Below are positions 585-23,111 of a stretch of 64,000 nt of DNA, one piece after another. The notes beneath the pieces are model-generated. The model was not told the origin of the DNA and searched no databases. It saw nothing but the letters and a program-made list of their open reading frames with translations. Origin of the DNA: an uncultured delta proteobacterium (GTDB taxonomy: Bacteria; Desulfobacterota; Desulfobacteria; Desulfobacterales; JAFDCJ01); contig CAVYNY010000019.1 in assembly GCA_963769935.1 (NCBI GenBank), forward strand, positions 79,147-143,146, written 5' to 3'. Positions within the stretch are counted from its first letter, which is position 1. Every line of letters starts with the position of its first letter. The position numbers were made by a program, and so were the translations under genes.

Positions 585-2722
585 TTATTGCGTTTTTGAA
601 CGTTTATCAAGGTATTCGATCCGCTCGAGGATTTGGCGTGCCGCTTTATGATCCGGATCCAGGCGCAGTACCTCTGATACATGATATCTGGCCCGCTCAA
701 ACTCGCCCTGGGAAGCCAGAAGAATACTCAATCGTAAATGAGCATTGATATAATTAGGTTTCAGTCGAATTGCTTCCGTATAATGAAGTTCCGCTTCCTT
801 AAATTTCATTTGTTGTAAAAATATGCCGGCCAGGTTGGCGTGGGCCGTGGCTGAGTCAGGCTCCAGGCGCAGCGCCTCGGAAAACTGATGGGCCGCTTCG
901 TCCAGCCGTTTCTGACGTGCGAGCGCAATTCCGAAGTTGGTGTGCGCGCCGGCATAGCCGGGGTTTAGCCGCAGGGCTTCGAGCAAAATGCTGCTCGGCC
1001 TCCTCGAATTCACCTCGACTGCGCCAATTCAATCCCTAAATTATTGTGCGCCTCTGCAAATCCGGGTTCGATCCGCAACGCTTCTCTGTGGTGTTCTATC
1101 GCCTCGAGATGCCGGCCTTGTTCGGCCAGAGCAAGTCCTAAGTTAGTATGAGCGCGCGCATAATTGGGCACCTGTCGCAGTGCTTCAGAATATTGTTGAA
1201 TCCCTTCCTCGAGCTTGCCCTGACGCACCAGCGCATTGGCGAGATTCAAATGCGCTAAGGCCGAGTCGGGTTCGAAACGCAAGGCCTCTTTAAAGAGACG
1301 GATGGCTTCGACATCCTGTCCCTTTTCGGCCAGAGCAAAACCCAGATTGTTGAGGGCCAAAAAACTGTTGGGGTTGATTTGCAGAGCGTGTTCAAAAAAA
1401 GTTTGGGTATCATGCCAGTACGGGACCTGCCGGGAGCTGCACAGCAGAAAAAATCCTAAGACCATTACGCCGCAGATGGCCGCCAGTTTCTTTCTGGGCC
1501 ATGTCAATCCCCAGGCCAATGCGATCGCCGGCCCGATCATAGCAAAATAAACATACCGGTCTGCAACCGTCGAATTGCGCTGAAATTCAAATGAAATGAA
1601 CCCTAACACCGGCAGCAGGCCGAGGACAAAAATTCCTGCCGCCGCCGCAAGCCACGGCAGTCGTTTCCGCTTTAACCAGAGCCATATGGCAACGATATAC
1701 GGCACCGATCCGGTTATAAACAGCCAGCCGTGTCCCATTATATACTGCGGAGTTCGTCCGTAGTCCGGACCCAACCGCAGGGGCAATACCAGCTGGTAAA
1801 GATAAAACGCAACGGCATCGCCCGCAATCAGAGGGCGGGCCCATAGAGGCGGCTTAAAAGCAAGAATCGAACCGGTCTGCACCCAGCGGGTCAGAAGACC
1901 CCATGCCAGTGCAATAATGAACCACACCCACAGACCGGATAGATTCTCACGCCAGGATTGCCGCCAACCCCATGCAGCCAGCAACCAAACCATTACCGGT
2001 ACAACAACGGCGGTCGGTTTTGCCAAAAGCGCCAGAACATATAGTCCGGTGGCGAGCCCGTAATGTAACCCGGGATGCGGCTGATTGCCCGGCAGCGTTT
2101 TGGCATCGATGGACACCAGATACTGCCAGACGGCCGCCAGCGCTAATAAGCCGAACAACACATCCTTTAGGCCGGTAACCCATGCAACGGGTTCAACTTG
2201 AAGGGGGTGGATGGCAAACAGCAAGGCACCGCCGCAGGCCGCCCAGGACAACGGCATTGCGTCGACCTTGTCTGTCGCTTCCGTCTCTATCTGCCTTGTG
2301 CGACTCAACAGCAGCAACAAAATACGCCACAGAACCAGCACACTCAGCACGTGCAGCAAGAGATTAAAGCTGTGAAAAAGCCCCGGATCGGGAACCACTG
2401 CGGCAGCGGAATTCGCTTTTAGCAGCTTGGGCGCCCATGCCAGCGCGGCATAAATCGTATAGAGGAGCGGCGCATAGAGACGTTCGTAAGGATAGCGCCA
2501 GAAGTGCAGCAGGTTGTCAAGGGAGGGTACCTGGAGGTAGGGATTTTTATAAACATTGACACTGTCGTCCCAGGCCAGAAACTGGTGGTGGGATATCGGC
2601 CAGAAGACAACCGTTGGTACTAAAATGAGGATTATGATGGGGATCAGCCGCATCCAGCGGTTGGTGCGATGAATGGGCGGCTGATGATCAGAGTCTGTAA
2701 TCAGGCACCTTTCAGTCATCAC
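585..2722 (-). CDS. TMTC-like GT-C membrane glycosyltransferase with C-terminal TPR repeats (split by indels near 990-1015)
   Basis: WDD motif after TM1; HPLQVEPVAWV, LAKP and ADRYVY motifs; TPRs (NNLG, AHLNLA). ORFs 1010..2722 and 585..1013 join as ...ELAQ-RGEFEEAEQHF-LEAL if two single bases are removed. Confidence 0.8.
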
Positions 2723-3899
2723 CGATTCCTTGATTGCAATTTTTCTCTACCCACCGGCTCAGAAATTTAGCTGCGTTGGCCGCACCATTCAGATCGATCG
2801 GCAGATCTTTTAACGCGGGTTTAATTTGAAGCAGTCTATGCATGTGCTTGCTTAAACGATCGGCGCGCATATCTTCTTCCGTCAATATTCTCATCGGGAA
2901 AAAATCCTTTATTTTTTCTACCCGCATCGGTTGCTCCCGCTGACGCGAGTAAGGATAAACCAACGCCGGCACCTGGCTAACCAGCAAGTTCATACAGGTA
3001 TTGTATCCGGCCAGGCTGACCGACAGATCGGCCGCGTTCAGATAATCCGGAAAGCGCCGGGTAAAACGACGGATGCGGATATCACTCGAGGCGCGGGCGG
3101 CTAATTTATTAAATTCTTCATCTTGCATGAAGGGACCGGCAAAAGCTTCAAGCCGCAGGGACATGCGGTTGCGCAGCAGTTCGCAGGCCGCGATGACACA
3201 ATCTAAAAGCCGGTATCCGGACCGCCCGCCGCCGGCACTCGCCACAACCAGCTTCCGGCCTGCGGCCACCGCCAAAGAATGTCGCAGGCTGCGGCCGGCC
3301 GCCGGGTCTGTCTGCTGGGTGATATACCCCGTGTAAACCACTGGAATGGCGATGTCGTTCACCCTTGAAAAGGTCTCGTCGAGTCGCAGCAGACGCTCGT
3401 CGGAATGAACCAGCAGGACATCATAGTACCGGTTTAACTTTTGGATGACCCTTTCTTCGTAGGCGGCCGGATCTTTCTTTTCTACCAGGATATCCCTCAG
3501 ACTGCAAACGGTTTTGACGGCACCGAAGGTGCCGCTCCGAATATCTGCCAGCACGGGCTCCAGTTCAAAACCAAATAGGGTGCGGCCGAAGGGATGCAAT
3601 TCAACAATGAAAATATCGGGCTGCTTCTCCCTAAACAATTCGGACAGGATATCTTTGCGTGCCTGCTGAATCTCGGCCACACTTTTTGTGGGGTCGCCGG
3701 GAATCAGGGTGGTGAATTTCTCATCCATGTAAAGCACCGGCAGCCTGACAAGCTGGACATGCCGCGGCAAATCCAGGACCACGTCCTGCCCGCCGGCAAC
3801 CAGCGTTACAGCATGCCCCGACAGGGCACGCGCGAATTCGAGGCTGCGCACCAAATGCCCCATCCCCCAGACGTATTGGCAGTAAATGATGATGTTCAT
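2712..3899 (-). CDS. COG4671-type glycosyltransferase (GT28 C-terminal domain)
   Basis: YCQYVWGMGHLVRS N-terminus, SLRDILVEK, SAGGGRSG, SLAGYNT, REQ motifs. Confidence 0.85.
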   Translation of the reverse strand: MNIIIYCQYVWGMGHLVRSLEFARALSGHAVTLVAGGQDVVLDLPRHVQLVRLPVLYMDEKFTTLIPGDPTKSVAEIQQARKDILSELFREKQPDIFIVELHPFGRTLFGFELEPVLADIRSGTFGAVKTVCSLRDILVEKKDPAAYEERVIQKLNRYYDVLLVHSDERLLRLDETFSRVNDIAIPVVYTGYITQQTDPAAGRSLRHSLAVAAGRKLVVASAGGGRSGYRLLDCVIAACELLRNRMSLRLEAFAGPFMQDEEFNKLAARASSDIRIRRFTRRFPDYLNAADLSVSLAGYNTCMNLLVSQVPALVYPYSRQREQPMRVEKIKDFFPMRILTEEDMRADRLSKHMHRLLQIKPALKDLPIDLNGAANAAKFLSRWVEKNCNQGIGDD

Positions 3900-4133: not shown

Positions 4134-4955
4134 TCATGGTGCGTTTAAACAACTAATTGTAGAACTGGTGTATACCAAATCCTTAAAATGAACCAGTTGA
4201 AGCGTGTTATGGGTTTTGAGTACCTTCAAGAGAATATCCAGAAAATCAAATGCGGCTGAATTCATGCGCTGATGATGAATCATAATTCCGCACCAGCCTT
4301 CTGTAATTCCCCGGTGAAGCTCGTTAAACAGGTTATCCCATCCCGCCTGCGGCGAATCCTCCCTGCGGGTATGCAGATCGACATTGACATCAAAGCTCGG
4401 CAAACCCGGCGGGGGCGGCGGCCGGCTGCCGCGGCTGCGGGATACCGCTCGGTACTCCAAGTTTTTCAGCGTCGCCAGAGCTTCCTGCCCGCATCGATTC
4501 CACGGCGGCGTGAAAACCGGATAGAAACTTTTGCCCATCAGGTCCCACAGGCGCTGCCGGCCGCATCGAATATCGCGGGCCAGCGCATCCGGGGTGCGCC
4601 GTGGGCCGAATTCCTGCTTTTTCCCTGCGAGCTCATGATTTACGTGCCGCCATCCGTGTTGGTGCCAGCACCAGAGGCGGGCGCCCTTTTTTCCGATGCC
4701 TTCGATCGCCTGCCAACGGACCGGAGTCAACCAGGCGGGTACGACGGCCAGACAGAGCGGCGCACCGTGTAAAGAAAAAACTTCCAGCAGACGTCTAAAC
4801 CGGCTGCCGGGGGCAGCGATATCGTCGGCCCGGAAAAAGATGAATGCTTCCCCCGGACCTGATGCCTGTTCACAGGCGGCCTCGATACAACTTGCAGTTC
4901 TTGCAACCAGATCTGAAGGAAGACGTTGCCATATGGATGAAACGTATTTTTGCAT
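4134..4955 (-). CDS. polysaccharide deacetylase family protein (NodB-like fold)
   Basis: FFRADD, HQHGWRH, FTPPWNR, IMIHH motifs. Confidence 0.85.
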   Translation of the reverse strand: MQKYVSSIWQRLPSDLVARTASCIEAACEQASGPGEAFIFFRADDIAAPGSRFRRLLEVFSLHGAPLCLAVVPAWLTPVRWQAIEGIGKKGARLWCWHQHGWRHVNHELAGKKQEFGPRRTPDALARDIRCGRQRLWDLMGKSFYPVFTPPWNRCGQEALATLKNLEYRAVSRSRGSRPPPPPGLPSFDVNVDLHTRREDSPQAGWDNLFNELHRGITEGWCGIMIHHQRMNSAAFDFLDILLKVLKTHNTLQLVHFKDLVYTSSTISCLNAP

Positions 4956-5095: not shown

Positions 5096-6271
5096 TTAAA
5101 TATTCAATCTGCAATATTCAATCTTCAATTTATCCAGCCAGGCGGCCGTGTTGGCGGCGCCGTCCAGCTCAATTCCGACGGGCACTCGATCCGCGTTAGA
5201 CAATGCCCGCGCCATGATGTCTGCCAGGCGGTCGGGCTCAAGGTCTTGATCTGCGACTACCTTCAGGATTCCCATTTGATCCAGGCGTTCAGCCCGCATC
5301 CGTTGCTCGCGATTCTGGGGAAACGGCCACACCAGGGCGGGCACCCCGGTTGCCAGAATGTTCATGGTTGTGTTGTACCCTCCCATGCTGACCGACAGAT
5401 TTGCCGCCGCCATATATGATAGAAAGTCGGGACTGAACTTGTTTATCTCGACATCCTTGCCGGCCAGCCGCTGCAGACGATTGAATTCCTCCTGATCCAG
5501 GTAAGGCCCGGTGAAAACTTTCAGATACGGCCGCTTTTTCATGCGCAGACGATCAAAGGCGCAGATAACCGCTTCCAGAAGCGGTGCGCCCACATTGCCC
5601 CCCCCGGCACTGGCAACGATCAGGATCTCATCCCGATCGATTTGCAGCCGACGACGCATGTTTGCCCCGGCACCCGGTGGGGGTCGGCGGGCGATGTAAC
5701 CGGTATATATCACGGGAATTCTTATTTCATCAAAGCGGGCAAAGGTTTCGCTGATTCGCGCCAGATTTGGATCGGCATGCACCAGCACCGCATCGAAGCA
5801 GCGGTTGAGGGAGTTGACCGCCCGCAGCTCGTGTTTGGCCGCGTCCTCCTTTTCAACGAGGATATCCCGCACGCTGCAGACGACACGACAGGGGGGCAGC
5901 TTTTTTTCGCCGATGGCCTGCAAAACGGGATCGAGCTCAAAACGAAAGGCTTTGCGCCCGAAGGGATAAAGCTCCACCAGGAAAACATCCGGTTTTTCTT
6001 TTTCGAAAAGGTCGAACAACCGCTTTTGCCGCTGTTCCTTGATTCGATCCAGCGCGGTATTTTTTTGGGAACTGTAAAGCCCTTTAAATTCCCGGTTCAT
6101 CTGCAGGTCGGGCAGGTTGATTTTACGGACATGCTCCGGCAAATCCGTCTCGACCTGCGGGCCGCCGGTTACCAGGATCACCTCGTGTCCGGACAGCGCC
6201 CGGGCAATCTCCAGGCTGCGAAACAGGTGGCCGATTCCCAGAACATGCTGGCAGTATTGAATAATTTTCAT
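5096..6271 (-). CDS. COG4671-type glycosyltransferase (GT28 C-terminal domain)
   Basis: YCQHVLGIGHLFRS, ELYPFGR, SVRDILVEK, SAGGGNVG, SMGGYNT; paralog of 2712..3899. Confidence 0.85.
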   Translation of the reverse strand: MKIIQYCQHVLGIGHLFRSLEIARALSGHEVILVTGGPQVETDLPEHVRKINLPDLQMNREFKGLYSSQKNTALDRIKEQRQKRLFDLFEKEKPDVFLVELYPFGRKAFRFELDPVLQAIGEKKLPPCRVVCSVRDILVEKEDAAKHELRAVNSLNRCFDAVLVHADPNLARISETFARFDEIRIPVIYTGYIARRPPPGAGANMRRRLQIDRDEILIVASAGGGNVGAPLLEAVICAFDRLRMKKRPYLKVFTGPYLDQEEFNRLQRLAGKDVEINKFSPDFLSYMAAANLSVSMGGYNTTMNILATGVPALVWPFPQNREQRMRAERLDQMGILKVVADQDLEPDRLADIMARALSNADRVPVGIELDGAANTAAWLDKLKIEYCRLNI

Positions 6272-6275
6272 TGGA

Positions 6276-7696
6276 TTACATTTGTCTGAGATACCGCAAA
6301 TTGCTTAACAGAATCGACACGGGTTCTTGGCTTTTCACGGGCAGCAAACTGACCGTCTGATCGGTGGCAACCCGCGGCAAACGCGGTTTGTGGATGGCAA
6401 GCCCGGGATGCACCCTTTGCAAAAAATCGCAGAGAATTTCACCGGCCATTTTGGCTGCGGCATACTCGCCCATATCCAAAGGAAGCTCCTCGATCGCCGC
6501 CGAGGAAGGATAGAAAACCTTCTGCAGGCCGGCAGTCGGATCCGCCACACACTGAACCGTCCGGAGAAACCCGGTGACATAGTACTCGCAAAAGGCGGCA
6601 AAGCGCTGCGGCGAAAATTTGCCTTTGGCTGCTCCAAAAATATAAGGCGTGGCGAAATAGTACAAATACAGAGGCCTGGACCGATTGACAAGCCTGTCGA
6701 CCAGCCCTTGGGGCGGATCCAGAACATTCAGCGGCAGGCAATCCGCCCGGGCCCCCTGAGAGACAATTTCATCGACAATCCGTTGGGCGTCCTGCCGGCC
6801 GCGATAATAGGTAAGGATGACCTCGGCGCCGCCGGCAGCCAGGAGCTTGGCGGTGACTTCTCCCAACCCACGGGATCCTCCGACAATCAACGCCCGTTGG
6901 GCTGAAAACTCCTCCGGTTCAACCTGACGGCAGACGTCGCTAAAGGCGGCCTGCTTTTGGGGTTTGGGGCGCAGGAAGGCTTTTACCTCCCCCTTCACCC
7001 CCGGGGCTTCAACCTCAATTGAGACCAGAGCCAGGCGCTTGTTGCAATCCGCAACCTGGTAATTCAGGGTCGCCGTGCCGGCAATCTCCGCAGAAAAAGT
7101 CAGATTGAGGCTTGAATAAATTGAGTGCTGCCCCGGGCATTCCATGCCGACCAGACGCGTGGTCGCCAGCAGAGCGGCAAGCTGTATCGGAGGCAGCACC
7201 CGGATCAGATCGGGGAAAAGCCCGCCGGCAAGCTCAGCCATCCAAATAAAGGGCAACGGTGCCCGAAGCTGCCGTCACCTCGTCAAGCGAGCGTTCGCGG
7301 CATGCTTGCCGGTTCATGAGACATCTTTGGCAGCGTACCCGGGCAGTGATCCTGCAAAGGGCTCCCGCTAATTTCAATCCATGCCGCAGGCGTGCCGTCC
7401 GCCTCAAGTTTGATGGCGAACTGGTATTCATCCTGCCGGGTAACCAAGCCGCAGACGGTTTGCCCCACACCGATTCCGGCCTGAAAATTGGCTTTGACCG
7501 TCCGCAGCGCCAGAGGTTTCGTTCGGGATTTCAGATGATCATTCAGACTCCACAACAGGGCATGCAGACCATGGACGACCTGACGCCCGAACAGCAGACG
7601 CCTGGCAAGCACGGGATCCAGGTGCAGCGGATTATAATCGCCGGAGAGTTTGGCGAAGGCCACCTGATCGTCTGAGGTAAATACGCGTTGGATCAT
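6276..7696 (-). CDS. MaoC-like hotdog dehydratase / SDR ketoreductase fusion (split by indels near 7240-7310)
   Basis: N-terminal FAKLSGDYNPLHLD...VVHG (MaoC); C-terminal GGSRGLG and YAAAK (SDR). Frames of 7283..7696, 7234..7470 and 6276..7256 join with two 1-bp corrections. Confidence 0.75.
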
Positions 7697-7989
7697 AGTT
7701 CGTTAGGCGGATAAGGGTGCCGAAACGACAATTTGTTTCAAAATTGTCGAGGGCAGTTGCATGTGAAATTTTTAAGGTTTCAGTGTTCAGCCCAGCCGCC
7801 GGCCAAAACAACGGCCGGTTTGATCGAAAATTAAAACTTTTGGAAATCGGACAAAGTTGGATTAAATATCACGCCCACTTCGTTAGAGCTCACAGAAATC
7901 GCAGTCCGCCGGAGGCGGATTTCTTTTGCCGCAGGCAGCTGTAAACCCAGACCTTCGTGATCTCTGAGCGCTCTGTGTGAGATGTGGTT

Positions 7990-9674
7990 TCATATAAGCT
8001 CAATATGCCCGGGAACGGAAAAAGGCTGTTTTGCGTCCATGATAAAACACTCCCCCTGCTGCTGGAATCGGGGCGCCAGGCTTTTAAAAAAATCCAGACA
8101 CGGTTTATTTTTGGATGTAGAAGTATATCGGGCGTAAACGTTTGCGACTCCCATTGCCTGCGCCTGGTGAATCGCGACGGCAAGCATGGTTTCTTCTATT
8201 TTGCGTCCCAGCACCCGGCAGCTCAGAATAAAATCCACAATTTGAGCGCTTCGATCCTGAATTTCCAGGCTTATTATACCGGTTAAACCGGCGTCGCCGA
8301 ATTTATCCGAGACGCGCAAGGTCCATAGCCGGTGGTGCTCCTGTTCGGCCCAAGCCATGAGTTCGGCTTCGGACATACGTCTGGTGGACAGGTTCATTTG
8401 ATTGGTTTTGTTCAGCAGCTGCGTGGCCCGTTGCAGGTTGGCCGGATGAAGTTCTTCAACCTGAACCCGAATAGCTAGCCGCATTAGCCATTCCTCTAAT
8501 GAACGGACTGTTTTTTTCAACTCCCGCCGTTTGGTTTCCGAGAGATACATGGTGGACCGGGCCAGGTCTTCCCGGCTGAGAGAAGGCATCTCAAAACACC
8601 GCAGACTGAGCAGGGTCGCCGGATAAAACAGCGGGTCTTCCGGCCAATCAGGCACCAGAACCTCCGGCAGGCTCTCTTTGACCCGCGCCCGCTCAACGGG
8701 ACTGTCGTCAATAAATACCGCCGACTGGGGCCCAAGATTCAATTCGGCCAGCAAATCGATGATATTTTGAACTTTATCCTGCCAGTTAATTCGCCAGCCG
8801 GCAAAATCTTCCAACCTGAGCACCATTTCAGGGTGCTTCCCGATTGCTTCCAGCGCGACCTGCTCCTCATTTTTACTCACAATGGCCAGAAGAATCCCTC
8901 GATTCTGCATCGATTTCAAAGCGTGCTGGAAATCGACATAGGCCTCCCCGATGTGATGATGTCCGCCCAGGACAAGATTCTCCCACCCGGCATCACCGAC
9001 GATGCCGCCCCACAGCGTATCATCCAGATCCACGATGATAAGTTTGCGTGCATACCCGAGCATTCCGCGCAGGGCGGCTTTGATATCCCGGGCGGCCGCC
9101 TTGAAGACCTCGTTGCCGAACGGAATTTTTCCCAAATACCACAGCTTGGGGCTGAAGGCCTGGATGCCCTGCCGGTGCAATCCAGCGCTGGGTATTGAGA
9201 ACATAGATGTTGGCGGCCTTTGCCAGATTCTCGGCCAGCCTGAGATTCATGCGCATGAGGGTGTTCGTCGGCCCGATTTCGGTCTGCATGTCCAGCACCC
9301 CGAAGACGCTTCGATAGGAAGGCAGCACCCAGGATGGAACGAACGCATACTTCACCCGCCCACTCATGTTTACCAGCAGCGCACAATATTCATCTACCTG
9401 TTGCAGCACCTTCTGCAGCGAAACCGGTTCATACTTAAGAAGCGCCTTAAAGGCCGGCACAACGGACTGGGGCCGGGTCCAGATCACGGCGACATCCGGC
9501 GTATTTTGCCAGCAGGGCAACTCCCGGTTTAGCAGGGTTGCAACCGGCTGCCCGAACGGGGCGGAAATCGGCTTGATGCCCGGGAAATTCCGGATCATTG
9601 GCGATATAACCGGCGAAATTCTGCAGATTAAAATCTGAGACGAGAACACATGTGTAGGGTTGCTTATCCAGCAT
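7990..9674 (-). CDS. FkbH-like HAD-IIIC phosphatase / glyceryl transferase (frameshifted)
   Basis: DLDDTLWGG, SKN, FIDDSPVER, NKTNQMNLST, DKFGDAG and LSCR motifs; N-terminus MLDKQPYTCVLVSDFN starts at 9674; spread over three ORFs. Confidence 0.85.
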
Positions 9675-9967
9675 TTTTTTCGTCCAGCCGCAGGTGGATG
9701 TAGTCGGCAAGCGTGCCAAGGGTGCGAAACACCTGATTGATCCGAGACAATGTGCGCTCATCGGTCAACAAAACGGGCCTGCCAAATTCGGCGGCTGTCT
9801 TTTGTTCCGTCACGGCAATCAGGTTAATCAGTCCCGCTGAATCCAATCGGCCGGAATCACCGGCCAGACGGTGTCTCCAGGTCTTTATCCAGGTGTTCAT
9901 CCGGCGGCCGCAGCTGGTTGAGTTCGTCAATAACACTGAACAGCATTTGCGTAATTTGGGCGTGCAT
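9664..9967 (-). CDS. acyl carrier protein (one frameshift near 9870)
   Basis: MHAQITQMLFSVIDELNQLRPPDEHLDKDLET / LAGDSGRLDSAGLINLIA...TLGTLADYI; LDS phosphopantetheine-serine motif; overlaps the fkbH-like start. Confidence 0.75.
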
Positions 9968-10081
9968 TGTCCGGGTTATTCCTTACTGTTCAAAAAAGTT
10001 ATGGGCTTCGCATTTGCCGGTTTGCCTGTTTGCCGGTTTACTTAACCGGCTCACGGGTTAACAGGTCAACGGGCTAACGGA

Positions 10082-11206
10082 TCAATAAAACGCGAGATCT
10101 CCGTCACCACCTTGCAGGCGGCAGTTTGCCAGGGGGATACCGGCAAACGCTTTCGATAGGAGAAATCCTCTCGATTTTTTTTTGGCAGACCAGCAGGGAC
10201 AGCCGAGCCTTAAAAAATCTGCCGCCAACCGCTCGTCATACAGGCTGAGGATGCTTACATCCATCGCCAGCGCGTGTTGGAATGCTGCCGCCGTAATTGA
10301 AGGCGCGTGCCGGCTCTCAAAATAGGCATACACGACACTCATCCGATCATCACGCACTTTCAGCAGTAAAAATCCGATCATCTCATTGTGGTGCTCAAAT
10401 ACCTTGACGCCCAGATTCAGAAATCGGCCGGCGCGTGACGAAAAATAGTATCTTTTGCCGGCCGAATCTTTGAACGGCGCCGATAATATCCAGGGGTTGT
10501 TCATGATCCAGCTGAGGTCGGACTTTTCTTTGCGGGTCAGATCGTGCCGGTGATGCTGTTTTATAAAACGGTCTGTCTCTTCATCGATGGTTGCGATATA
10601 TTCGAACGTCAGATGCCGGCAGTGATTGCTGCGTCTTTGCCAGAAAAAATTTCTGAGATTCACGACTTCATCCGCCATGGCATCAAAGATTTTAAATACT
10701 ACCCGCAATATCTTCAACGCCGGGAGCCGGCGGGAAATACTTGCACTAATATTCAACCGCAGCCGGATATCCAGTCCCTGCAAGGGATTTAAAGCCATAA
10801 ACTTTTGAGAAGCCTGCAGCGCCAGCCCGGCCTCCCGGGAGCTTCCGGACACGCCGATATGCTGGTCATAGGCGTTTAGGGCCTTAAAAAGCAGAATGGT
10901 CCCGACGCCCGCGGTTGCCCGAGAGGGATCGACCCACCAGCTGGTCAACCAGCCCAATTTGTAGACAACGTCATTGACAAAGATTTTATCGGGAAGAATT
11001 CCGAGATAGCCGATCACCCGGTTATCCCGGTAGGCAACCAGCAGGACGGGATCATCCGCATCCGCCCGGGGGTTGCGGCTGTATGACAACGCGCGGTGTT
11101 TGGTTATCGGCAGGGTTTGGGTCAGCCAGAAATCTTCTGACGCCAGCGCCGTCTTTAAATCGGCGACCGTAAAGGCTTTAATTTCCATCGCGTCCCGGTT
11201 TTCCAT
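10082..11206 (-). CDS. GNAT-fold acyltransferase-like protein
   Basis: VIGYLGILP...WLTSWWVDPSRATAGVGTILL resembles GNAT motif A; 374 aa. Confidence 0.6.
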   Translation of the reverse strand: MENRDAMEIKAFTVADLKTALASEDFWLTQTLPITKHRALSYSRNPRADADDPVLLVAYRDNRVIGYLGILPDKIFVNDVVYKLGWLTSWWVDPSRATAGVGTILLFKALNAYDQHIGVSGSSREAGLALQASQKFMALNPLQGLDIRLRLNISASISRRLPALKILRVVFKIFDAMADEVVNLRNFFWQRRSNHCRHLTFEYIATIDEETDRFIKQHHRHDLTRKEKSDLSWIMNNPWILSAPFKDSAGKRYYFSSRAGRFLNLGVKVFEHHNEMIGFLLLKVRDDRMSVVYAYFESRHAPSITAAAFQHALAMDVSILSLYDERLAADFLRLGCPCWSAKKKSRGFLLSKAFAGIPLANCRLQGGDGDLAFY

Positions 11207-11521
11207 AAGGTTTAATTAAACCTGAGCTGAACGATTCCAATACGAAGATTGAAACAGGTGCAAAAACATTTTCGCCACCAAGACACCAAGACGCAAAGAG
11301 GAATATTAACCAACGGTTTCGCTTTGTGTCTTGGTGCCTTTGTGGCAATTTATTCAGGCTTTTCCGGATTAGGATAGAATGTTCCGCTCATATACGGTCC
11401 GAGTATAGCGCAAAGGAATCGGCTGTCAAGCCGGAAGTATGGACAGTGTTTTGCTGCGTCTCAAGAAACCTGGAAAGCGACGGTCTACCAGTATTCCACC
11501 ATTCCAATCGGGGCGAAGCCC

Positions 11522-12262
11522 CTAGCTTGCGACAAGGCTGTCGATATCGATTCTGCCGAGCACTTCGGTACTTATCCCGGGCCGGGCGGCAAAGAATTTT
11601 TTAAACCCGTAGGATTTGAGAATGGCGATGAGTTTTTCAGTGTACTCGTTGAACGGAAAGCAGTACAGATCAGGTCGCAAAGCCAGGTTGTCCTCCATCC
11701 ACCTCAGGCACAGCTCGGTATCATATTTAATGTAGTCTTCCCATTGCGCTTCCGTCCTGCGGGTCAGGACCTCATCTTTAAAATAATAGCCCTGAAATAC
11801 CAGCTTGGAGCGGATGCTCAGGTTGCGGGCCGATATTTCAGGCCGATTTTTAAAGCGCGCCAGTTTCCATGGACTGAGCGGCTTGCGCCGGCGGGCATGA
11901 GTTGCGGTTAAGATCACGTCATGAAAATGACTGTGAACGCCGATTCTCACATTCGGCCGGGCGCATAATGCCTGAATTTCGTCCACCGTCATGAAATGAT
12001 CATAGCGGCCTTCGATAAATGTCCGGTAGGCATACTTTTTGGTTTTTAGATGGGCGATGTATTCGCCGTCAAACATGGGCCGGGCCTTGCCGGGCTTAAC
12101 AAAAGAGGTGGTGATAAAGAAGGTTAATTCAGCGGGATGTTTTTTCAGCAGAGGCAGATAATAATACTGTGAAAAAAGACCGTCATCAAAAGTCAGGCGG
12201 TACCGGTCAAGTCTTAAATCGAAATATTCTTTACGGATATCATGGATCATCAGGTATTGCAT
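11522..12262 (-). CDS. polysaccharide deacetylase family protein
   Basis: LTFDDG, IGVHSHFH, YCFPFN motifs. Confidence 0.8.
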   Translation of the reverse strand: MQYLMIHDIRKEYFDLRLDRYRLTFDDGLFSQYYYLPLLKKHPAELTFFITTSFVKPGKARPMFDGEYIAHLKTKKYAYRTFIEGRYDHFMTVDEIQALCARPNVRIGVHSHFHDVILTATHARRRKPLSPWKLARFKNRPEISARNLSIRSKLVFQGYYFKDEVLTRRTEAQWEDYIKYDTELCLRWMEDNLALRPDLYCFPFNEYTEKLIAILKSYGFKKFFAARPGISTEVLGRIDIDSLVAS

Positions 12263-12340
12263 GCGAATTCCGCTTTGTCAGGTTTGGATCATGAGGATTA
12301 ACTGGTAATATGACAGTTGCCTGCTAATTCGAAATTAATA

Positions 12341-12655
12341 AAATTCCAAGCACCAAATACCAAAACTCAAACAAATCCCAATAACCAAAATTCAAAATTC
12401 CAAACTTATAATCCTTACTATAGCTTTTCTCAAGCGCATCGTCAGCGGCAGACCAGGGTCTATAAACGATGCGTATCAACTATGGAAAATGTTTTGGTCA
12501 TTGAATATTTGAATTTGGGATTTACCTGCCCTGTTAAATTGCCCTGCAGAATTTGTGTGACAGGTCGAAAATATGATCTTCATAACTAACACCTTTACGG
12601 ATTTGTCGAATTATTTAACAGGGTAAATAATTTGGTGCTTGAGATTTCAGATTTC
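12341..12655. repeat. two-armed AT-rich heptamer repeat element with a nested ~100-bp IR-bounded insert
   Basis: Arm 12341-12405 matches the reverse complement of 14797-14861; arm from 12491 matches 55539-55605; insert bounded by CCCTGTTAAAT / ATTTAACAGGG. Confidence 0.7.
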
Positions 12656-12714: not shown

Positions 12715-13344
12715 TTAAGCATCGGGAATAAGGTCAAGTGCATTTACTTCTCCTATCCGGAGCCTGCAGCGGCGGTGAATCAGCCAGTGAAGCTGATAGG
12801 ATTCAAGAATCGGGGGCTCGCCGGGCAGAAACTTGCGGCCGCACAAATGATAAATTAGGCTTTTAACCACCCCTTCATGAGTAACCACCAAAAGAGTTTG
12901 GCCGGGATACCGTTCGGCCGCTTCCTGCAATGCCATTTGGCTTCTCTGCAAGACACGGCGACGGGATTCTCCCCCGGGTGGACAAAAATCCCAGCCGGCA
13001 TTTACCTGCTTGTCCAATATCCGGGTGGCTTCAGCTTCGATCTCGGGGATGGCCTTTCCCGCCCAATGGCCCCAATCCTGTTCTCTGAGCCGTGAATCGA
13101 CGGTCAGCGGTACCTTCAAATAGGCATTGATTATCTCCGCCGTTGCCACAGCGCGCCCGGTATCACTGGCAAGAAGACGATTCCAGGAGAATGGCTCTAA
13201 AATCCGGCCCCAGCGGGATGCCTGCAGTTCGCCTTCCGGGGTCAACGGAGAGTCGCTGTGCCCCTGGATCTTTCTTTCTCGATTCCAAACGGTTTGCGCG
13301 TGGCGGATCAGGCCAAAGCGGGTAATTTTTGCTAAATCCTGCAT
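12715..13344 (-). CDS. histidine phosphatase family protein
   Basis: LIRHAQTVWN, SDTGRA, LREQDWG, GGES, VTHEG motifs. Confidence 0.9.
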   Translation of the reverse strand: MQDLAKITRFGLIRHAQTVWNRERKIQGHSDSPLTPEGELQASRWGRILEPFSWNRLLASDTGRAVATAEIINAYLKVPLTVDSRLREQDWGHWAGKAIPEIEAEATRILDKQVNAGWDFCPPGGESRRRVLQRSQMALQEAAERYPGQTLLVVTHEGVVKSLIYHLCGRKFLPGEPPILESYQLHWLIHRRCRLRIGEVNALDLIPDA

Positions 13345-13409: not shown

Positions 13410-13506
13410 TAATTAATCCGCCCTGAGATATAGAACCTTCAGGGTTGAATTTTGTGCGTTGACAACTTAAGAAAGTTGTTAAATTCGAGATCCGGCGGAT
13501 TAATTA
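13410..13506. mobile_element. 97-bp inverted-repeat element, copy 2
   Basis: Perfect 22-bp IR 13401-13422 / 13494-13515 (ACAGCGTCATAATTAATCCGCC); internal CCCTGA...TCAGGG. Confidence 0.75.
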
Positions 13507-14642
13507 TGACGCTGTTGCGCGATTGATTTAAGCGATATCTCAAGCTGCTGATAATTTTTATTTAAATCATGAAATTCGCGCACATAGGATTTCGCGGCCA
13601 GCCCCATTTGTTGTCTCAGGTTTTTATCGGTCATCAGGCGCTGAATGGCATCCGTAAAGGAATCCAACGCATACATCGGCACCAGAATGGCGGTTTTACC
13701 GTCCTGCACGGCTTCCGGAACGCCGGCATTGTCAAAGGCCACCACCGGCAGCCCGCAGGATTGCGCCTCCAGATAAACCATGCCTAACGATTCCCGGATG
13801 CCGGGAAATACGAATAGATCGGCCGCACTATAGAAACGATACATTTCCCCGCGCGGTATTTTCCCCACAAAGTGCACCCGGCCCGGCACATGCTCGCCGG
13901 CCAGTTGCGCAAGCTTTCCTCGCGCGCGGCCGTCTCCGGCGATGACCAGACGGAAGTTAAGACCCCGGCGCAGTAGTTCGCCGCAGGCCCGAATCACCCA
14001 GGTGAGCCCTTCGGTTTTGACATCCTGTCTGAACATGGCGGCTGAAAAAATTACCGGTTCATCGGCCGCATGCCATTTTTTCCTCAACTCCCGGCGGGCT
14101 TGGGCATCAAAGGAAAAATCAGCGGGGATGATACCCGGCGCCACATAGGTCACCCGGCTCGCCGGCAAAAGACGCTTGAGGTTGAGCAGATCGACGGATT
14201 TATTGGCGAAAACGTGATCGGCGCAACGCAGGGTATTTTGGTTCAGATAAAACCCGGGTTTGGTAATCCACCGGCGCCTTCTTTTGGTGGAGTAGATGCC
14301 CTGGAATATGACATAGGGGATATTCAATTTGCCGGCAACAGGCGGGCCCAGTAAATCCGGCGCCTTGTAATAGCTGTGATAGGTAAGCCATAAGTCGGCG
14401 ACCTGGGCGGAAAGCTTGCGGACCACCCGCCTTCTTTCCCGGAACAATCCCGGCCAGAGCCAGGGCCTCCAGTAGATCCAGCGACACCGTAAATTGCTGA
14501 TCGGAAAAACCTGGTGGCCGCGTTGCGCCAGAAAATCGAAGATCCCGGTGGCCGTAACAAGATCGCCGGAAGGATGCGGATGGCCCAGGGGTTTGAATGG
14601 TGCATAGAAGCATATTCGCAAAGAGCAAGGCGTCGTGCGCAT
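13500..14642 (-). CDS. glycosyltransferase family 4
   Basis: FYAPFKPLGHPHPSGD, HSYYKAPD, ESLGMVYLEAQSCGLPVV (EX7E); exact start uncertain. Confidence 0.9.
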   Translation of the reverse strand: MRTTPCSLRICFYAPFKPLGHPHPSGDLVTATGIFDFLAQRGHQVFPISNLRCRWIYWRPWLWPGLFRERRRVVRKLSAQVADLWLTYHSYYKAPDLLGPPVAGKLNIPYVIFQGIYSTKRRRRWITKPGFYLNQNTLRCADHVFANKSVDLLNLKRLLPASRVTYVAPGIIPADFSFDAQARRELRKKWHAADEPVIFSAAMFRQDVKTEGLTWVIRACGELLRRGLNFRLVIAGDGRARGKLAQLAGEHVPGRVHFVGKIPRGEMYRFYSAADLFVFPGIRESLGMVYLEAQSCGLPVVAFDNAGVPEAVQDGKTAILVPMYALDSFTDAIQRLMTDKNLRQQMGLAAKSYVREFHDLNKNYQQLEISLKSIAQQRHN

Positions 14643-14685
14643 AGAGCATAGGGTAGAGGACATGGCAAACATCAAATACTTCGCA

Positions 14686-14929: not shown

Positions 14930-16174
14930 CTATATCTCCTTTTTGTACACTTCGGCGAGATCCTGCACCAGCCGGCGATTGTCGAAATCCCTTACAACCC
15001 GCTGTCGGCCGGCCGCCGAGACCTGGTTTCTCAATTGCGCATCGGTCAGCATGCGCAGCATGGCCCCGGCCAGTTTATCCGGATCGCCGGGCGGCACCAG
15101 CACACCGGTTTTTCCATTTTCCACCAGTTCGGGAATCCCCGAAATATTGGTCGCAACCACCGGCACGCCCATGGCCATGCTCTCCACCAGGACGTTGGGA
15201 ATGCCGTCGCGGTCTCCATCCGGAGCGACTTCACAGCCAAGCACGAAGAGATCGGCATTTTTGTATTGCTCTAGAACGACATCATGGGGGCGGGTTCCCA
15301 GCAGCTGTGTCACAGAGGTCAGTCCCAGTTCTCTGATAAGCGACAGGATTTTTTCGCGCTCTTCACCACCGCCGATATGGGTGTGTAAAAATGCAACCTG
15401 CTGATCGCGTAAAATTTTAAGTGCTTTGTAAATTGTGGGCAGGCCCTTTTTGGCCGATAGACGGGCAATGGTCAGAATCCGGTAGGGCTGCACGGGATTG
15501 CTCACAATTTCACTTCCCCGCGAAAAAAGCTCGATATCAATGCCATGATAGATGCAATGAATCGGGGTTTTATGACCGTCGGCCAGCTCAAGCAGGTGTC
15601 GCCGGTTGTATTCGGTGCAGGTAACGACAAACCGGGCCAACCCGATTTTTTCTCGCAGCTGCCCGGGATCGGATGTATAGATATCTTTGGCATGGGCGGT
15701 AAAACTAAACGGCAATCCACTCAGCTGACCGGTGAACATGGCCACCGATGTGGGTGAATGGGCAAAATGGGCATGCAGATGGGTCACGCGGCTGGCCTCC
15801 AGCAACCGATGCACCAGATAGCCTGCCTGCAGCAGATGCTTGATGGTAGCCGACTTGCGCGTTCGCAGGAACCTGCGATAGGCCGTTTTCAGTGCCGCGC
15901 CGTAAACCTTAGGTTTTTTGGCAGCCAGACGGCAATTATGGTAAACCAGCCGCGGCAGCGGCTTTATTAAGGTTTCGGGCAGGTAGTCGACCGGAGCCTT
16001 GATTTTTTTGACGCTGTCATGGGTAAAGTTTTCCCGCGGCTGGCGCATTGAAAACAGGTGAATGGCAAAACCGAGTTTTTCAAGCAGACGGATTTCGTTG
16101 GAGATAAAGGTTTCGGAAATGCGGGGGTACCCTTTCAGGATCATCCCCAGAACCGGTGGGTTGAATGTGCTCAT
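14930..16174 (-). CDS. glycosyltransferase family 4 (WcaL-like)
   Basis: LKGYPRISETFI, HAHFAHSP, FTAHAKDIY, DRDGIPNVLVESMAMG; ATGA overlap with the upstream gene. Confidence 0.9.
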   Translation of the reverse strand: MSTFNPPVLGMILKGYPRISETFISNEIRLLEKLGFAIHLFSMRQPRENFTHDSVKKIKAPVDYLPETLIKPLPRLVYHNCRLAAKKPKVYGAALKTAYRRFLRTRKSATIKHLLQAGYLVHRLLEASRVTHLHAHFAHSPTSVAMFTGQLSGLPFSFTAHAKDIYTSDPGQLREKIGLARFVVTCTEYNRRHLLELADGHKTPIHCIYHGIDIELFSRGSEIVSNPVQPYRILTIARLSAKKGLPTIYKALKILRDQQVAFLHTHIGGGEEREKILSLIRELGLTSVTQLLGTRPHDVVLEQYKNADLFVLGCEVAPDGDRDGIPNVLVESMAMGVPVVATNISGIPELVENGKTGVLVPPGDPDKLAGAMLRMLTDAQLRNQVSAAGRQRVVRDFDNRRLVQDLAEVYKKEI

Positions 16175-17373
16175 AATTTTTTGCACCTGAATTCAAGCAG
16201 GCGCTTTTGCATGGTTTCGATACCGGTCAACTGGAACCGGGAAATGGCTGCTCGATAGGGTTCCGGGTTTTGCAGGAGGGCGGCAACCTTTTTGCTCAAA
16301 AGTTCGGGGGTGAAGTCATCCCACGGGATGTAATCGACCAGATTTTGTCGGTTAAAGGCCCGGGCGCGAATGATCTGCTCCTTGCGTGGGTGTTTCCCGC
16401 GGGATGACCAGGCTGACGGTTCCCTGGCCGAGGATTTCACAAAGTGTATTGTAGCCTCCCATGCTGACGACGAGATCGGCGGCCGCAAAGATTTTCTCCA
16501 TTTGCCGATAAAAATGGATATGTTCGCACGCCCAATTTTCTGGCCCGCTTGAAAACATCCCGTCTTTCCTGCTTGGGCATGAAGGGGCCTGTTATCAGGA
16601 CGCTTTTAAATGACGGGGAGCCGCCATAGGACTCCAGCGCCGTCAGATACGTATCCATGACTCTGTAGCCGTCGCCGCCGCCGCCGGTAGTGACCACCAC
16701 CAATTTCTGATCATTTTTCAGCCCGATTTCTTTTTTGAAATGCCGCACCGTCTCTTTGCTGGGGATTTTACGGGGAATATAGCCGGTAAAATACATTTTC
16801 CGGCTGATGGATTCCGAGATATTATATTCTGTGATCGGGATCATAAAATTCCCGGATCCCGTAGATCCAAATCTCGCTGTAAAGGTTTTCCAGGTGCTGG
16901 TAGACTCTTTTATCCTTCCAGTCTTTCTTGACCGTTTCAGCGTCGTCCATAATATCCCGCAGGCCGAGAATGGATCGGGTGTCGGGCCGGCAGCGCCGCA
17001 GCCACTGTAAGGTCGGCAAGACCTCCCTTTTCAGGCCAAGCGGTTCTTTATCGACAATAAAGAGGTGGGGTTGAAAGGTTTTGGCCGTGGCGGTGATTAT
17101 ATTTTTGCGGATGTCCAGGGCATGCTGGACGTTGATCTTGATGGAAAGCGGCAGATACTCATCGTTGGTCTTTTTGATAATGCCCGGAATCCGGACAAAA
17201 TCGATTTGCTCCGGAAAAGAAAATCGACCGACGATGGGCGAACCGGTCAGGATTAAAATATTGATGCGGGGTCCCAGCAGATGCGATGCAATCGCCATGG
17301 TCCTTCGAATGTGTCCAAGACCGTAAGTGTCGTGCGAATACATCAGAATGTTATAGGTGGAGTTGCGCGCCAT
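16171..17373 (-). CDS. COG4671-type glycosyltransferase (several frameshifts)
   Basis: MYSHDTYGLGHIRR, DKEPLG, LGLRDIMD, TTGGGGDG, SMGGYNT, EQIIRA spread over ORFs 16822..17382, 16437..16844, 16352..16558, 16171..16488. Confidence 0.8.
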
Positions 17374-17647
17374 TCGCCTCACAGATCAACTGGATGCCGG
17401 AATTGTAGTCTGACTAATATTGTGTTTTCGGTGAATTTTCAAAGCAAATTTTTAACGTACACTCCTATATCACATCAAACAAATCGCATCAAACATTCCT
17501 GTAAAAATATCATCAGATTCTTTTCTTTGGGTTGCTATTTTGTTATAGAGAGGAGTCTATCTTTTTGTCCAGAGGGTATAATTAACCATATTCAACCGGA
17601 ACTAAAACCGAATAAACATGTAATATACCCCTGGCAGGGAAAACAGA

Positions 17648-18847
17648 ATGAAAATTGATACCCAACGCTTCATCGATCGGTATGTCGGCGCTTTCATCTG
17701 CAGGATTTTTTCACTGTATTACCGGTTCGTCAAAAAAGATGTCGCTGCCGCCGCGCCCCGCAAAATACTCATTATCCTGTTGTCGGAGATGGGGGCCCTG
17801 GTCCTGGCCTATCCCATGTTTCAACGATTGAAAGAGAAATATCCCCAGGCCGAGCTGCACGTGATGCTGTTTGAAAAAAACCGCGAAGTGGTTGAATTGC
17901 TGGGAATTGTTCCTTCGGAAAATATTTTGACGATCGACAATGATTCCATGCAGTCATTGACCCGGGACATGCTGAAGACGATCGCCGACATGCGGAAGAT
18001 CAAACCCGACACCGTCATCGACTGTGAGCTGTTTTCAAGAATCAGCAGCATCCTGTCATATATCAGCGGCGCCGCCGTCCGAGTAGGATTTCATCCCCAC
18101 ACCCAGGAAGGTCTTTACCGCGGTAATTTTATGAACAGACCCGTGCTGTACAATCCCTATCATCATATTGGCCGGCAGTTTTTAACCCTGGTCGAAGCCA
18201 TCGATTCGTCGACCCGCCCGAAAGCCAAACGTGAAATACCGGATGAAAAACTGGAGGTTCCTGCCATTCAGGTCGAACCGCATGAGATTGAAAATGCCAA
18301 GCAACTTCTGTTCGATAGGGCGCCGGAAATCGAAGGAAAAAAAATCGTGCTCATCTATCCCGGCGGTGGTCTGCTGCCGATTCGGGCCTGGCCCCTTGGC
18401 AATTATTGCCGTCTGTCTGAAGAATTGCTTTACCGGGGGTATGCGGTGGGCGTGATCGGCCTGGCAGAGGATAAAAAGATCGCCGCGGAAATCCTGTCCC
18501 ACAACCGGAATCCAAGTTGCGTGGATTTGACCGGCTACACCAAAACCATCCGGGAGCTGATGTTGATATTTCACTTTTCTTCGCTGCTGATCACCAATGA
18601 CGGCGGTCCCGGCCATTTTGCCGCCATGACGCCGATTCCGGCAATTATTTTTTATGGTCCGGAAACTCCGACCCTGTACGGTACCATTGACGATAGTGCT
18701 GTGAACCTTTTTGTGGGCCTGTCATGCTCGCCATGCGTCACCGCCTATAATCACCGCAATTCTCCCTGCGACGGCGACAATATGTGTTTGAAAAAAATTG
18801 ACCCGGACCAGGTATTATCAAGGGCGCTTGAAATATTGGAATCTTAA
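17648..18847 (+). CDS. glycosyltransferase family 9 (heptosyltransferase-like)
   Basis: LSEMGALVL, RAWP, DLTG, ITNDGGPGHFA, FYGPETP, CSPC motifs. Confidence 0.85.
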   Translation: MKIDTQRFIDRYVGAFICRIFSLYYRFVKKDVAAAAPRKILIILLSEMGALVLAYPMFQRLKEKYPQAELHVMLFEKNREVVELLGIVPSENILTIDNDSMQSLTRDMLKTIADMRKIKPDTVIDCELFSRISSILSYISGAAVRVGFHPHTQEGLYRGNFMNRPVLYNPYHHIGRQFLTLVEAIDSSTRPKAKREIPDEKLEVPAIQVEPHEIENAKQLLFDRAPEIEGKKIVLIYPGGGLLPIRAWPLGNYCRLSEELLYRGYAVGVIGLAEDKKIAAEILSHNRNPSCVDLTGYTKTIRELMLIFHFSSLLITNDGGPGHFAAMTPIPAIIFYGPETPTLYGTIDDSAVNLFVGLSCSPCVTAYNHRNSPCDGDNMCLKKIDPDQVLSRALEILES

Positions 18848-20441: not shown

Positions 20442-20453
20442 GAGCAACACAGA

Positions 20454-20493
20454 ATGAACATCGAATCACGCCAAGGCGTGAATCGATGTTCAT
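20454..20493. terminator. 19-bp stem-loop between convergent genes, possible bidirectional terminator
   Basis: ATGAACATCGAATCACGCC-AA-GGCGTGAATCGATGTTCAT (one mismatch). Confidence 0.5.
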
Positions 20494-20497
20494 CTTT

Positions 20498-22331: not shown

Positions 22332-22345
22332 TTACACCTCAATTT

Positions 22346-22978
22346 TCACGTTAAAAATTGATGCCACTTCAGATGATCTGTCTGATGATTCAACCGGGAG
22401 ATAAAAAGCCAGGCGCCCAGGATACCGATCAGCATCCCGGCCGCAACATCTGATGGATAATGCGAGCCGATAAACACGCGGGATACGGCAATCACAAAGG
22501 CATAGATCAGCGGTAAAAAGCGGCAGGCGGAATATTTAGAATTTTTGAGCAGATAATACAGGAATACCCCGGAGACAAACGCATCGGCCGCGTGACCCGA
22601 AGGAAACGAGTTGTAGCGGAAGGCAAACGAAAAGAAGGTAAATTCAGCGCCGTGCCCGGGACGGGCGCGGCCCAGCACAATCTTTAAGATCCTTACCAGT
22701 ACGAAGGCAAAAACAAGCTGAGCTTTGATATAAGCCAGGCAGGTGCCTAAAAGGCCTTGTTTTTTTTTAATTATGGAGTAGACAAACAGCGCAATAAACA
22801 CTGCATAAAACAAAAACAAACCTTTCGTCGTAATCAGGTCGGTAATGTAATAAGTATTCTGATTCAACAAGTCCCGTGCGGCATGCCAGATCCGGGTATC
22901 GAAGAAAAACAGAACCAGAATTGCTGACAGAGAAACAAGCAAAAAGATCAGTAAATATTTTTTGGGTATATTCTTCAA
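22346..22978 (-). CDS. PAP2 family membrane phosphatase
   Basis: KIVLGRARP, SFPSGH, SRVFIGSHYPSDV; likely TTG start at 22978 after GAGG. Confidence 0.9.
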   Translation of the reverse strand: MKNIPKKYLLIFLLVSLSAILVLFFFDTRIWHAARDLLNQNTYYITDLITTKGLFLFYAVFIALFVYSIIKKKQGLLGTCLAYIKAQLVFAFVLVRILKIVLGRARPGHGAEFTFFSFAFRYNSFPSGHAADAFVSGVFLYYLLKNSKYSACRFLPLIYAFVIAVSRVFIGSHYPSDVAAGMLIGILGAWLFISRLNHQTDHLKWHQFLT

Positions 22979-23111
22979 TCTATCCTCGCCCGGCGGGTTT
23001 TCGTATTTCTTATTTTTTAAAGCCCCCCGGTTTCTGACCGGATCGGTGAAACATCTCCGGGTTCTCCACCGGAAAAGGTACAACTTTGAATGGACCATTG
23101 TTCAGGGCGAT

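Follow-up and report, generated by a model that had tools for sequence, protein, structure and literature searches.

The DNA analysed here is a 64,000-nucleotide window from an uncultured delta proteobacterium of the order Desulfobacterales (contig CAVYNY010000019.1, here C19, positions 79,147 to 143,146), in which a conserved glycosyltransferase operon carries a five-gene insert. Our leading, though tentative, reading is that this insert is a cytoplasmic unit that would exchange an N-acetyl for a lactyl group on the glycoconjugate of the surrounding operon. Sequence comparison indicates that the insert is built of two layers: an accessory deacetylase (deac1) with a tandem-GNAT acyltransferase, and a donor module of an acyl carrier protein (ACP), an FkbH-family protein and a dehydratase/ketoreductase fusion (DH/KR), which is joined to one GNAT clade in one genus. 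Coordinates are those of the window, and L and G numbers denote loci and genomes of our set. The five genes are as follows.

6276-7696, minus strand: fusion of a MaoC dehydratase, a second hot-dog domain and a short-chain dehydrogenase/reductase (SDR) ketoreductase, DH/KR (PF01575, PF00106; 472 aa in relatives)
7990-9674, minus strand: FkbH-family glyceryl-ACP loader (TIGR01686, DLDDT, LSCR; 560 aa in relatives)
9664-9967, minus strand: dedicated ACP (RLDSAG serine; two-frame reading; 100 aa in relatives)
10082-11206, minus strand: tandem-GNAT acyltransferase (PF00583, E 5e-8; 368-374 aa; C-terminal DxD; degenerate CoA pyrophosphate-binding motif)
11522-12262, minus strand: deac1, accessory CE4 de-N-acetylase with a PgaB/IcaB-type circular permutation (PF01522, E 1.5e-9)

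The preliminary description of this DNA had listed five co-oriented genes, and Pfam and TIGRFAM matches together with motifs place all of them on the minus strand. The carrier protein with an LDS motif was recovered as RLDSAG, spread over two frames, and the MaoC-SDR fusion by matches to PF01575 and PF00106 within 6276-7696. The FkbH call also holds, with a TIGR01686 score of 293 bits against a cut-off of 146.65, and DLDDTLW (the HAD DxDxT motif) and LSCR (the C-terminal cysteine motif) are found in the window and in relatives. Likewise, the cassette does lie inside a glycosyltransferase operon, where it fills the gap between a histidine phosphatase gene and the glycosyltransferase gene GT28b and occupies 6276-12262 exactly, the same interval as originally delimited. 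The window was said to lack a ketosynthase, an MBOAT protein and a non-ribosomal peptide synthetase (NRPS). Indeed, the nearest ketosynthase match is at C19:24375, ~60 kb from the cassette, the sole MBOAT match of the genome is on another contig (C7), and no AMP-binding or NRPS family was found among the 38 window open reading frames scanned, which are a part of those in the window. A phosphopantetheinyl transferase gene is present elsewhere in the genome.

The block order GNAT-ACP-FkbH-DH/KR is identical in all seven relatives with a close GNAT, which excludes a chance arrangement and bears out the co-occurrence without a ketosynthase that had been expected. The 8 of 23 genus genomes that encode FkbH are the same ones that have the close GNAT, and the four genes relocate as a block or invert. 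In the seven same-genus genomes with the block, the intact proteins have ~368 (GNAT), ~100 (ACP), ~560 (FkbH) and ~472 (DH/KR) residues, and the ACP serine is invariant across 20 aligned ACPs.

Trans-acyltransferase (trans-AT) polyketide synthase (PKS) loading modules of the DH-KR-FkbH type make lactyl-ACP. A DH/KR profile of 13 rows and 473 positions aligned in one piece (positions 6-458 of 473, 140 bits, E 4e-45 in a single-target search) with the N-terminus of WP_273995518, a DH-KR-FkbH PKS protein, presumably Fr9C, which the spliceostatin producer Burkholderia FERM BP-3421 encodes on its plasmid p1. The profile scored 103 bits against a Streptomyces trans-AT loading module, whereas ordinary MaoC-FabG fusions reached 90-100 bits as the sum of two segments, neither of which exceeded 58 bits; the best PDB chain scored 50 bits. 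The motifs DxNPxHxD, GMxxPG, GGSRGLG and YxxxK are common to the DH/KR and the Burkholderia PKS loading module, and the dehydratase motif and YxxxK are intact in the DH/KR of all seven module-bearing relatives. The end-to-end alignment with the spliceostatin loading-module DH-KR thus makes conversion of glyceryl-ACP to lactyl-ACP likely, and on these comparisons the cassette is likely to produce lactyl-ACP. The earlier assignment of a PKS-loading-type DH/KR therefore stands as far as full-length homology to trans-AT DH-KR-FkbH modules goes, but is qualified by low identity. A 3-hydroxypropionyl product was considered and dropped, since a MaoC-type enzyme removes the β-hydroxyl. Burkholderia FERM BP-3421 is a confirmed spliceostatin producer (PMC10190677), and a spliceostatin-type cluster is listed as BGC 3.3 in an excerpt of PMC10589681.

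The DH/KR subfamily is patchy, being present in 3 of 401 genomes of the phylum at E 1e-30, as against 19 of 401 for FkbH. FkbH was found in the locus for eight of the ten best DH/KR genome loci, three of the ten being repeats of genomes already counted, and no FkbH match was found in 49 of the 80 loci from the DH/KR search, most of which match nothing but the MaoC motif, over a short stretch. The transferase adjoining the DH/KR module varies among GNAT (L033, L034, L036), MBOAT (L037) and WcbI (L108) proteins, so that the donor module is separable from the transferase. A CE4 deacetylase is also present in the distant FkbH-ACP-DH/KR-GNAT loci L033, L036, L039 and L044.

A GNAT fold had been predicted for 10082-11206, and both PF00583 (E 5e-8) and a structural model (pLDDT 83) with two GNAT domains in one chain support it. 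The closest fold is N-myristoyltransferase (NMT) 2p6e (Z 16.7, rmsd 4.3, 288 residues aligned), with which Eis2 is tied at Z 16.3. Pfam matches up to E 0.05 comprise Acetyltransf_1, _7 and _9 only, with no match to NodA; NCBIfam has no name for either GNAT clade described below, and the Atlas holds only unnamed GNAT clusters. GNATs linked to the donor module and lone GNATs share ~22% identity and the C-terminal DxD, and in a quick tree they form sister clades (SH-aLRT 99). R-G-x-G-x-[GA] is the usual loop for binding the pyrophosphate of coenzyme A (CoA). This motif is kept in all 14 lone GNATs checked and occurs in none of the 114 module GNATs that could be parsed (of 120), which are one clade and not independent cases; 97 of them have Ala at the expected Arg. 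The loss of R-G-x-G suggests that the module GNAT switched its donor from acyl-CoA to acyl-ACP, and the GNAT probably takes its acyl group from the ACP, as judged from linkage and motif loss. In G018 (L027:8180-8335), a 54-residue remnant of a module GNAT (75% identity) directly precedes a lone GNAT of the sister clade, which is on the opposite strand; this suggests a replacement scar.

The motifs TFDDG, HSHxH and FPFN of deac1 are conserved across 24 aligned homologs, and the metal triad is intact, with D26/D27, H110, H112 and H114 invariant in all of them. The deac1 model (pLDDT 85.6) has PgaB (E 5e-10), BpsB and IcaB as its best Foldseek matches. The protein had been called a NodB-like deacetylase; the CE4 family is correct but the NodB type is not, since deac1 has the circular permutation of PgaB and IcaB. 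Its catalytic core begins at residue 2, which leaves no space for a signal peptide, and on this evidence deac1 is probably cytoplasmic. The genes conserved across the 15 core operon loci described below include no sugar aminotransferase, so that a free amine would need to be unmasked. We regard the involvement of deac1 in an N-acyl swap as somewhat more probable than its absence from one.

Order-wide counts were made on one set of 301 genomes from 155 genera. GT28b is present in 103 of these genomes, deac1 in 25 and the GNAT family in 21, and all deac1 and all GNAT genomes fall within the 103. Both genes occur together in 19 of the 21 GNAT genomes and are confined to the same 9 of 155 genera, a genus-level count that we prefer to the Fisher test over the 103 genomes (p 1e-13), which overstates the association because kin are not independent. 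The candidate view of deac1 as a host-operon core gene unrelated to the GNAT, which came from data on the genus only, was overturned by these order-wide data. The idea of a five-gene unit survives in part: deac1 and the GNAT are tightly coupled, but the unit falls into two layers and deac1 mostly occurs without FkbH.

The slot between the histidine phosphatase gene and GT28b was found in four states. It is empty in most of the 15 core loci; it holds deac1 only in six genomes of one genus, which have no GNAT of this family genome-wide; it holds deac1 with a lone GNAT in, for example, L023, L025-L027, L125, L126, L131 and L144; and it holds deac1 with the module in L016, L017 and L021, the module being inverted in L022 and L031. 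Among 20 further deac1 loci, a lone GNAT adjoins deac1 in nine (five of them away from the operon) and lies 8 kb off in one, six are deac1-only and four are uninformative; FkbH is in none. The five genomes with the pair off the operon carry the GT28b of the operon elsewhere. A check of six lone-GNAT genomes (G008, G009, G010, G018, G025 and G049) found no FkbH. The module itself is off the operon in G002, G012 and G020. In G020 the operon is retained but its slot lacks a GNAT, which fits action in trans.

In the proposed pathway, FkbH would place glycerate from 1,3-bisphosphoglycerate on the dedicated ACP, as expected from its family. By full-length homology to the PKS modules, the MaoC domain would then strip the 3-hydroxyl to give pyruvoyl-ACP, which the SDR domain would reduce to lactyl-ACP. 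The PgaB/IcaB-type deac1, as its co-occurrence with the GNAT suggests, would unmask a sugar amine, to which the tandem GNAT, presumably adapted from an acyl-CoA-using sister clade, would move lactyl from the ACP, a step proposed from linkage and motif loss. An FtsX-type ABC system, whose genes lie downstream of the operon, would export the product. We have good confidence that the acceptor is made by this operon. A broader picture is possible but more speculative: a widespread ABC-linked glycoconjugate pathway in Desulfobacterales and rhizobia would have an optional decoration slot with four states (nothing; a deacetylase; a deacetylase with an acyl-CoA GNAT; a deacetylase with an ACP-adapted GNAT and a free-standing lactyl module of polyketide type), the GNAT would have switched its donor from CoA to ACP upon capture of the module, these would be the first N-lactyl-sugar enzymes, and the same module would feed GNAT, MBOAT and WcbI transferases in other phyla.

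Several observations weigh against the acetyl-for-lactyl swap. On the donor side, the DH/KR has low identity to the PKS didomain, at 25-33% in segments that blastp aligned locally with the Streptomyces module, and L035 has a DH/KR with no FkbH within 10 kb. On the side of the transferase, the GNAT tree has long branches, the loss of R-G-x-G comes from a single clade that retains G-x-G and could thus still bind CoA, and L109, an FkbH-linked GNAT outside the module clade, has Q-x-x-G-x-G. As for the deacetylase, the six deac1-only genomes mean that deac1 works without re-acylation, and deac2 (4134-4955), a second, deacetylase-like protein that belongs to the operon core and is encoded outside the insert, could supply the free amine in place of deac1. 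Were acetyl-CoA the donor of the lone GNATs, acetyl would be taken off and put back to no effect, so that either they would use another acyl-CoA or deac1 would act at another position. About three quarters of the GT28b genomes have neither deac1 nor the GNAT, no deac1 match accompanies the module in G002 (an 85% complete assembly of 780 contigs), and the deac1 match of G020 is split, with stops inside.

Part of this evidence feeds an alternative that we consider unlikely, though a real competitor, in which lactyl is moved without replacing an acetyl group: the GNAT would acylate a hydroxyl, or an amine that deac2 has freed, while deac1 acts elsewhere, or deac1 would later remove the group that the GNAT installs. 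ArnD, for comparison, removes a transient formyl group. The six genomes with deac1 and no GNAT, the core status of deac2, the ArnT-like and PAP2 genes flanking the operon and the futility of an acetyl-off, acetyl-on cycle by lone GNATs all fit this alternative. However, the GNAT family is found with deac1 in 19 of 21 genomes and the pair relocates jointly, the nearest GNAT folds are N-acyltransferases, and deac1 is far nearer to GlcNAc de-N-acetylases (PgaB, E 5e-10) than to ArnD, which in the form of 8t0j ranks 20th among the fold matches at E 0.02, well below PgaB.

The same cassette might also move another three-carbon acyl group, either glyceryl, with the DH/KR bypassed or slow, or pyruvoyl, with the ketoreductase idle; we hold this to be improbable. 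N-glyceroyl sugars are documented, as are N-lactyl sugars, rarely, in bacterial polysaccharides (both in an excerpt of PMC9912281), and simpler FkbH loci exist, with FkbH-ACP and MBOAT genes and no DH/KR annotated nearby in L117 and L120, and with archaeal FkbH-ACP-MaoC genes lacking an adjacent SDR in L085, L094 and L103. Transfer of lactyl is favoured over these acyl groups by a DH/KR of the same architecture as the PKS module and by its dehydratase and YxxxK motifs, which are intact in 7/7 module relatives. It is less probable again that the acceptor is a molecule other than the operon's glycan (lipid, protein amine or small molecule), with the cassette merely sharing the slot. The nearest folds, NMT and Eis, acylate peptides or aminoglycosides, the module lies amid unrelated genes in three of seven relatives, and the deac1-GNAT pair is off the operon in 5 of 20 loci; nonetheless, 25/25 deac1 and 21/21 GNAT genomes lie inside the GT28b set of 103/301, and distant homologous modules are located in glycan loci, which points to the glycan of the operon as the acceptor.

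The reading frames of deac1 and the GNAT are open. Comparison with two relatives revealed single extra bases in the other three genes, breaks that had gone uncounted in the first account: one in the ACP (~9867), two in FkbH (~9578 and 9161-9167) and two in the DH/KR (~7235 and 7303). From sequence comparison these five frameshifts are probably assembly errors. Decay of the cassette in this genome, with genuine frameshifts and ACP, FkbH and DH/KR pseudogenes, is very improbable: three genes do share five frameshifts, but every break consists of one extra base, errors of this type also affect GT28a (~16386, 16517 and 16835) and a TPR gene outside the insert, the three genes are intact in relatives, and the extra base is absent at 9167, 9579, 16388, 16519 and 16835, among the rows listed, from public contigs that stem from related strains and not from the same individual. 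Metatranscriptome X5 has contigs over portions of the genes for the GNAT, ACP, FkbH and DH/KR, whereas the middle of deac1 is left uncovered; since these contigs derive from related strains and may reflect DNA carry-over, they were not counted as expression. Between FkbH and the DH/KR, contigs of two runs bypass a 292-bp stretch (7700-7993), which has a depth of 100-160 as against ~5 elsewhere and is probably an intergenic insertion present in many copies. The region near 12340-12650 has a similar, repeat-like character.

All parts of the cassette come from known families, and as a whole it is an uncharacterised variant of carrier-protein-fed glycan acylation. It resembles trans-AT PKS loading modules of the FR901464/spliceostatin type in its MaoC, hot-dog and SDR architecture, in motifs and in the presence of FkbH and ACP. 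In those systems, FkbH and ACP are fused and precede a ketosynthase, whereas here they are separate genes in all intact relatives, the window has no ketosynthase, and the downstream enzyme is a GNAT within a glycosyltransferase operon. In Nod factor N-acylation, the deacetylase NodB frees an amine, which NodA acylates from the dedicated ACP NodF. The likeness here is a CE4 deacetylase with an acyltransferase and a dedicated ACP. However, the deacetylase is of the PgaB/IcaB type, the transferase is a tandem NMT/Eis-like GNAT with no NodA match, the acyl group would be a three-carbon glycolytic unit in place of a fatty acid, and the glycosyltransferases are GT4- and GT28-like in place of NodC.

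FkbH proteins place glycerate from 1,3-bisphosphoglycerate on stand-alone ACPs in tetronate and methoxymalonyl pathways, as with Mad7/Mad8 and Mad14/Mad12 (in an excerpt of PMC7489565). Unlike those pathways, the insert encodes neither a FabH-like condensing enzyme nor dehydrogenases of the FkbI/FkbK type, but a DH/KR and a GNAT instead. Dlt-like ACP-MBOAT acylation loci (L037, L095, L117) share the principle of carrier-protein-fed acylation of an envelope polymer, and L037 has the same DH/KR subfamily; in contrast, this locus has no MBOAT and transfer by the GNAT is predicted to be cytoplasmic. The Campylobacter jejuni gene cj1302 is an FkbH-domain gene in a flagellar glycosylation locus (in an excerpt of PMC7099621), and is thus a case of FkbH in a glycan locus without a PKS; that excerpt assigns it no function and describes no link to a DH/KR or a GNAT. 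Our literature search, which was thin on subscription journals, found no paper on FkbH/ACP-based N-lactyl sugars or glycan lactylation. The locus names small, soluble candidate enzymes for an entire N-lactyl route, and the close relatives give built-in controls, namely operons with an empty slot, operons with the deacetylase only, and a GNAT of the sister clade in which the CoA motif is intact; the simpler inserts of related genomes would ease dissection of the chemistry.

The locus also points to a conserved, unexplained glycosyltransferase operon, whose genes around the insert are as follows.

2712-3899, minus strand: GT28c, third protein with a GT28 C-terminal domain (PF04101; this genus and some relatives only)
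4134-4955, minus strand: deac2, DUF2334-like, operon core (PF10096, E 7.5e-4, below cut-off)
5096-6271, minus strand: GT28b, GT-B protein with a GT28 C-terminal domain, downstream insert border (PF04101, E 2e-16)
12715-13344, minus strand: histidine phosphatase, core, upstream insert border (PF00300, E 6.5e-47)
13500-14675 and 14930-16186, minus strand: two GT4 glycosyltransferases, core (PF00534; conserved order)
16171-17382, minus strand: GT28a, GT-B protein with a GT28 C-terminal domain, core (intact 399-aa ortholog matches PF04101)

The core was defined on 15 loci picked from GT28b-positive genomes and has the order GT28a, GT4, GT4, histidine phosphatase, GT28b and deac2, with single members missing in some. 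Histidine phosphatase is present in 15/15 of these loci, deac2 in 13/15 (tblastn), a large FtsX-type permease in 9/15, and GT28c in 3/15, one of them a fragment. The glycosyltransferases are of the GT4 and GT28-C types, and a NodC-type GT2 chitooligomer synthase is absent from the operon. In this genome the operon extends past the left edge of the window (C19:65880-75813) and there encodes an O-methyltransferase, two FtsX-type permeases (one small, the other of 1650 aa with an M28-like domain) and a DUF6785 protein, the FtsX and DUF6785 genes being 3-13 kb away from the window; the FtsX-type ABC system probably exports the product. Plasmid records, 230 in all and most of them rhizobial, also carry GT28b homologs, with GT4 and ABC genes alongside. 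We take these GT28b-type proteins to belong to COG4671, and a literature search under this label found no paper on their product.

The gene at 18798-20441, on the opposite strand, matches PMT_2 (E 4e-30) but scores just 23 bits for ArnT against a cut-off of 567. Around the operon, at 585-2722, 17648-24911, 37786-39387 and 48884-50566, are many genes that resemble membrane glycosyltransferases (TPR-tailed, PMT_2 type), together with a GT9 gene and two PAP2 phosphatase genes; their proteins may use the operon product. Other passengers in the slot or near it (L031:5227-6723, L026:11560-12714, L156:11663-12808, L153:2948-4531 and L025:6529-8901) include radical SAM enzymes (one B12-binding), a carbamoyltransferase and an unannotated membrane protein of ~750 aa that is also found in L030, L115 and L116. 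The operon product seems to take many decorations. Directly upstream of stand-alone deac1 and GNAT genes in two genera (L134:10366-12060, L135:10332-12050) is an AsmA-family gene.

In Sinorhizobium meliloti, plasmids (L117, L118) carry an MBOAT-ACP-FkbH locus and, at a separate place, counterparts of the host glycosyltransferase operon genes beside an ABC system; S. meliloti is a tractable organism for the core pathway. Nine acidobacterial loci (L039, L044, L047, L050, L051, L055, L057, L059 and L070, with Pfam scans made on L039 and L044 only) combine NeuB, MaoC-FabG, FkbH, ACP, GNAT and deacetylase genes, L044 also with NeuC and NeuA, and from this gene content a parallel swap on a nonulosonic acid is predicted. 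Ammonia-oxidising archaea (L043, L085, L094, L103) have FkbH-ACP-MaoC-AcpS genes in glycan loci with no adjacent SDR, L094 additionally with a deacetylase and a hexapeptide transferase. An NRPS-like cluster (L110:9113-16937) contains a GT4-MaoC-hotdog-SDR fusion, a B12 radical SAM protein and an FkbH-FkbM-ACP fusion, and a Maritalea plasmid (L121:7756-11734) encodes a fusion of an AAC(3)-type acyltransferase domain with FkbH beside a MaoC-SDR gene, pseB and a NeuB-family gene.

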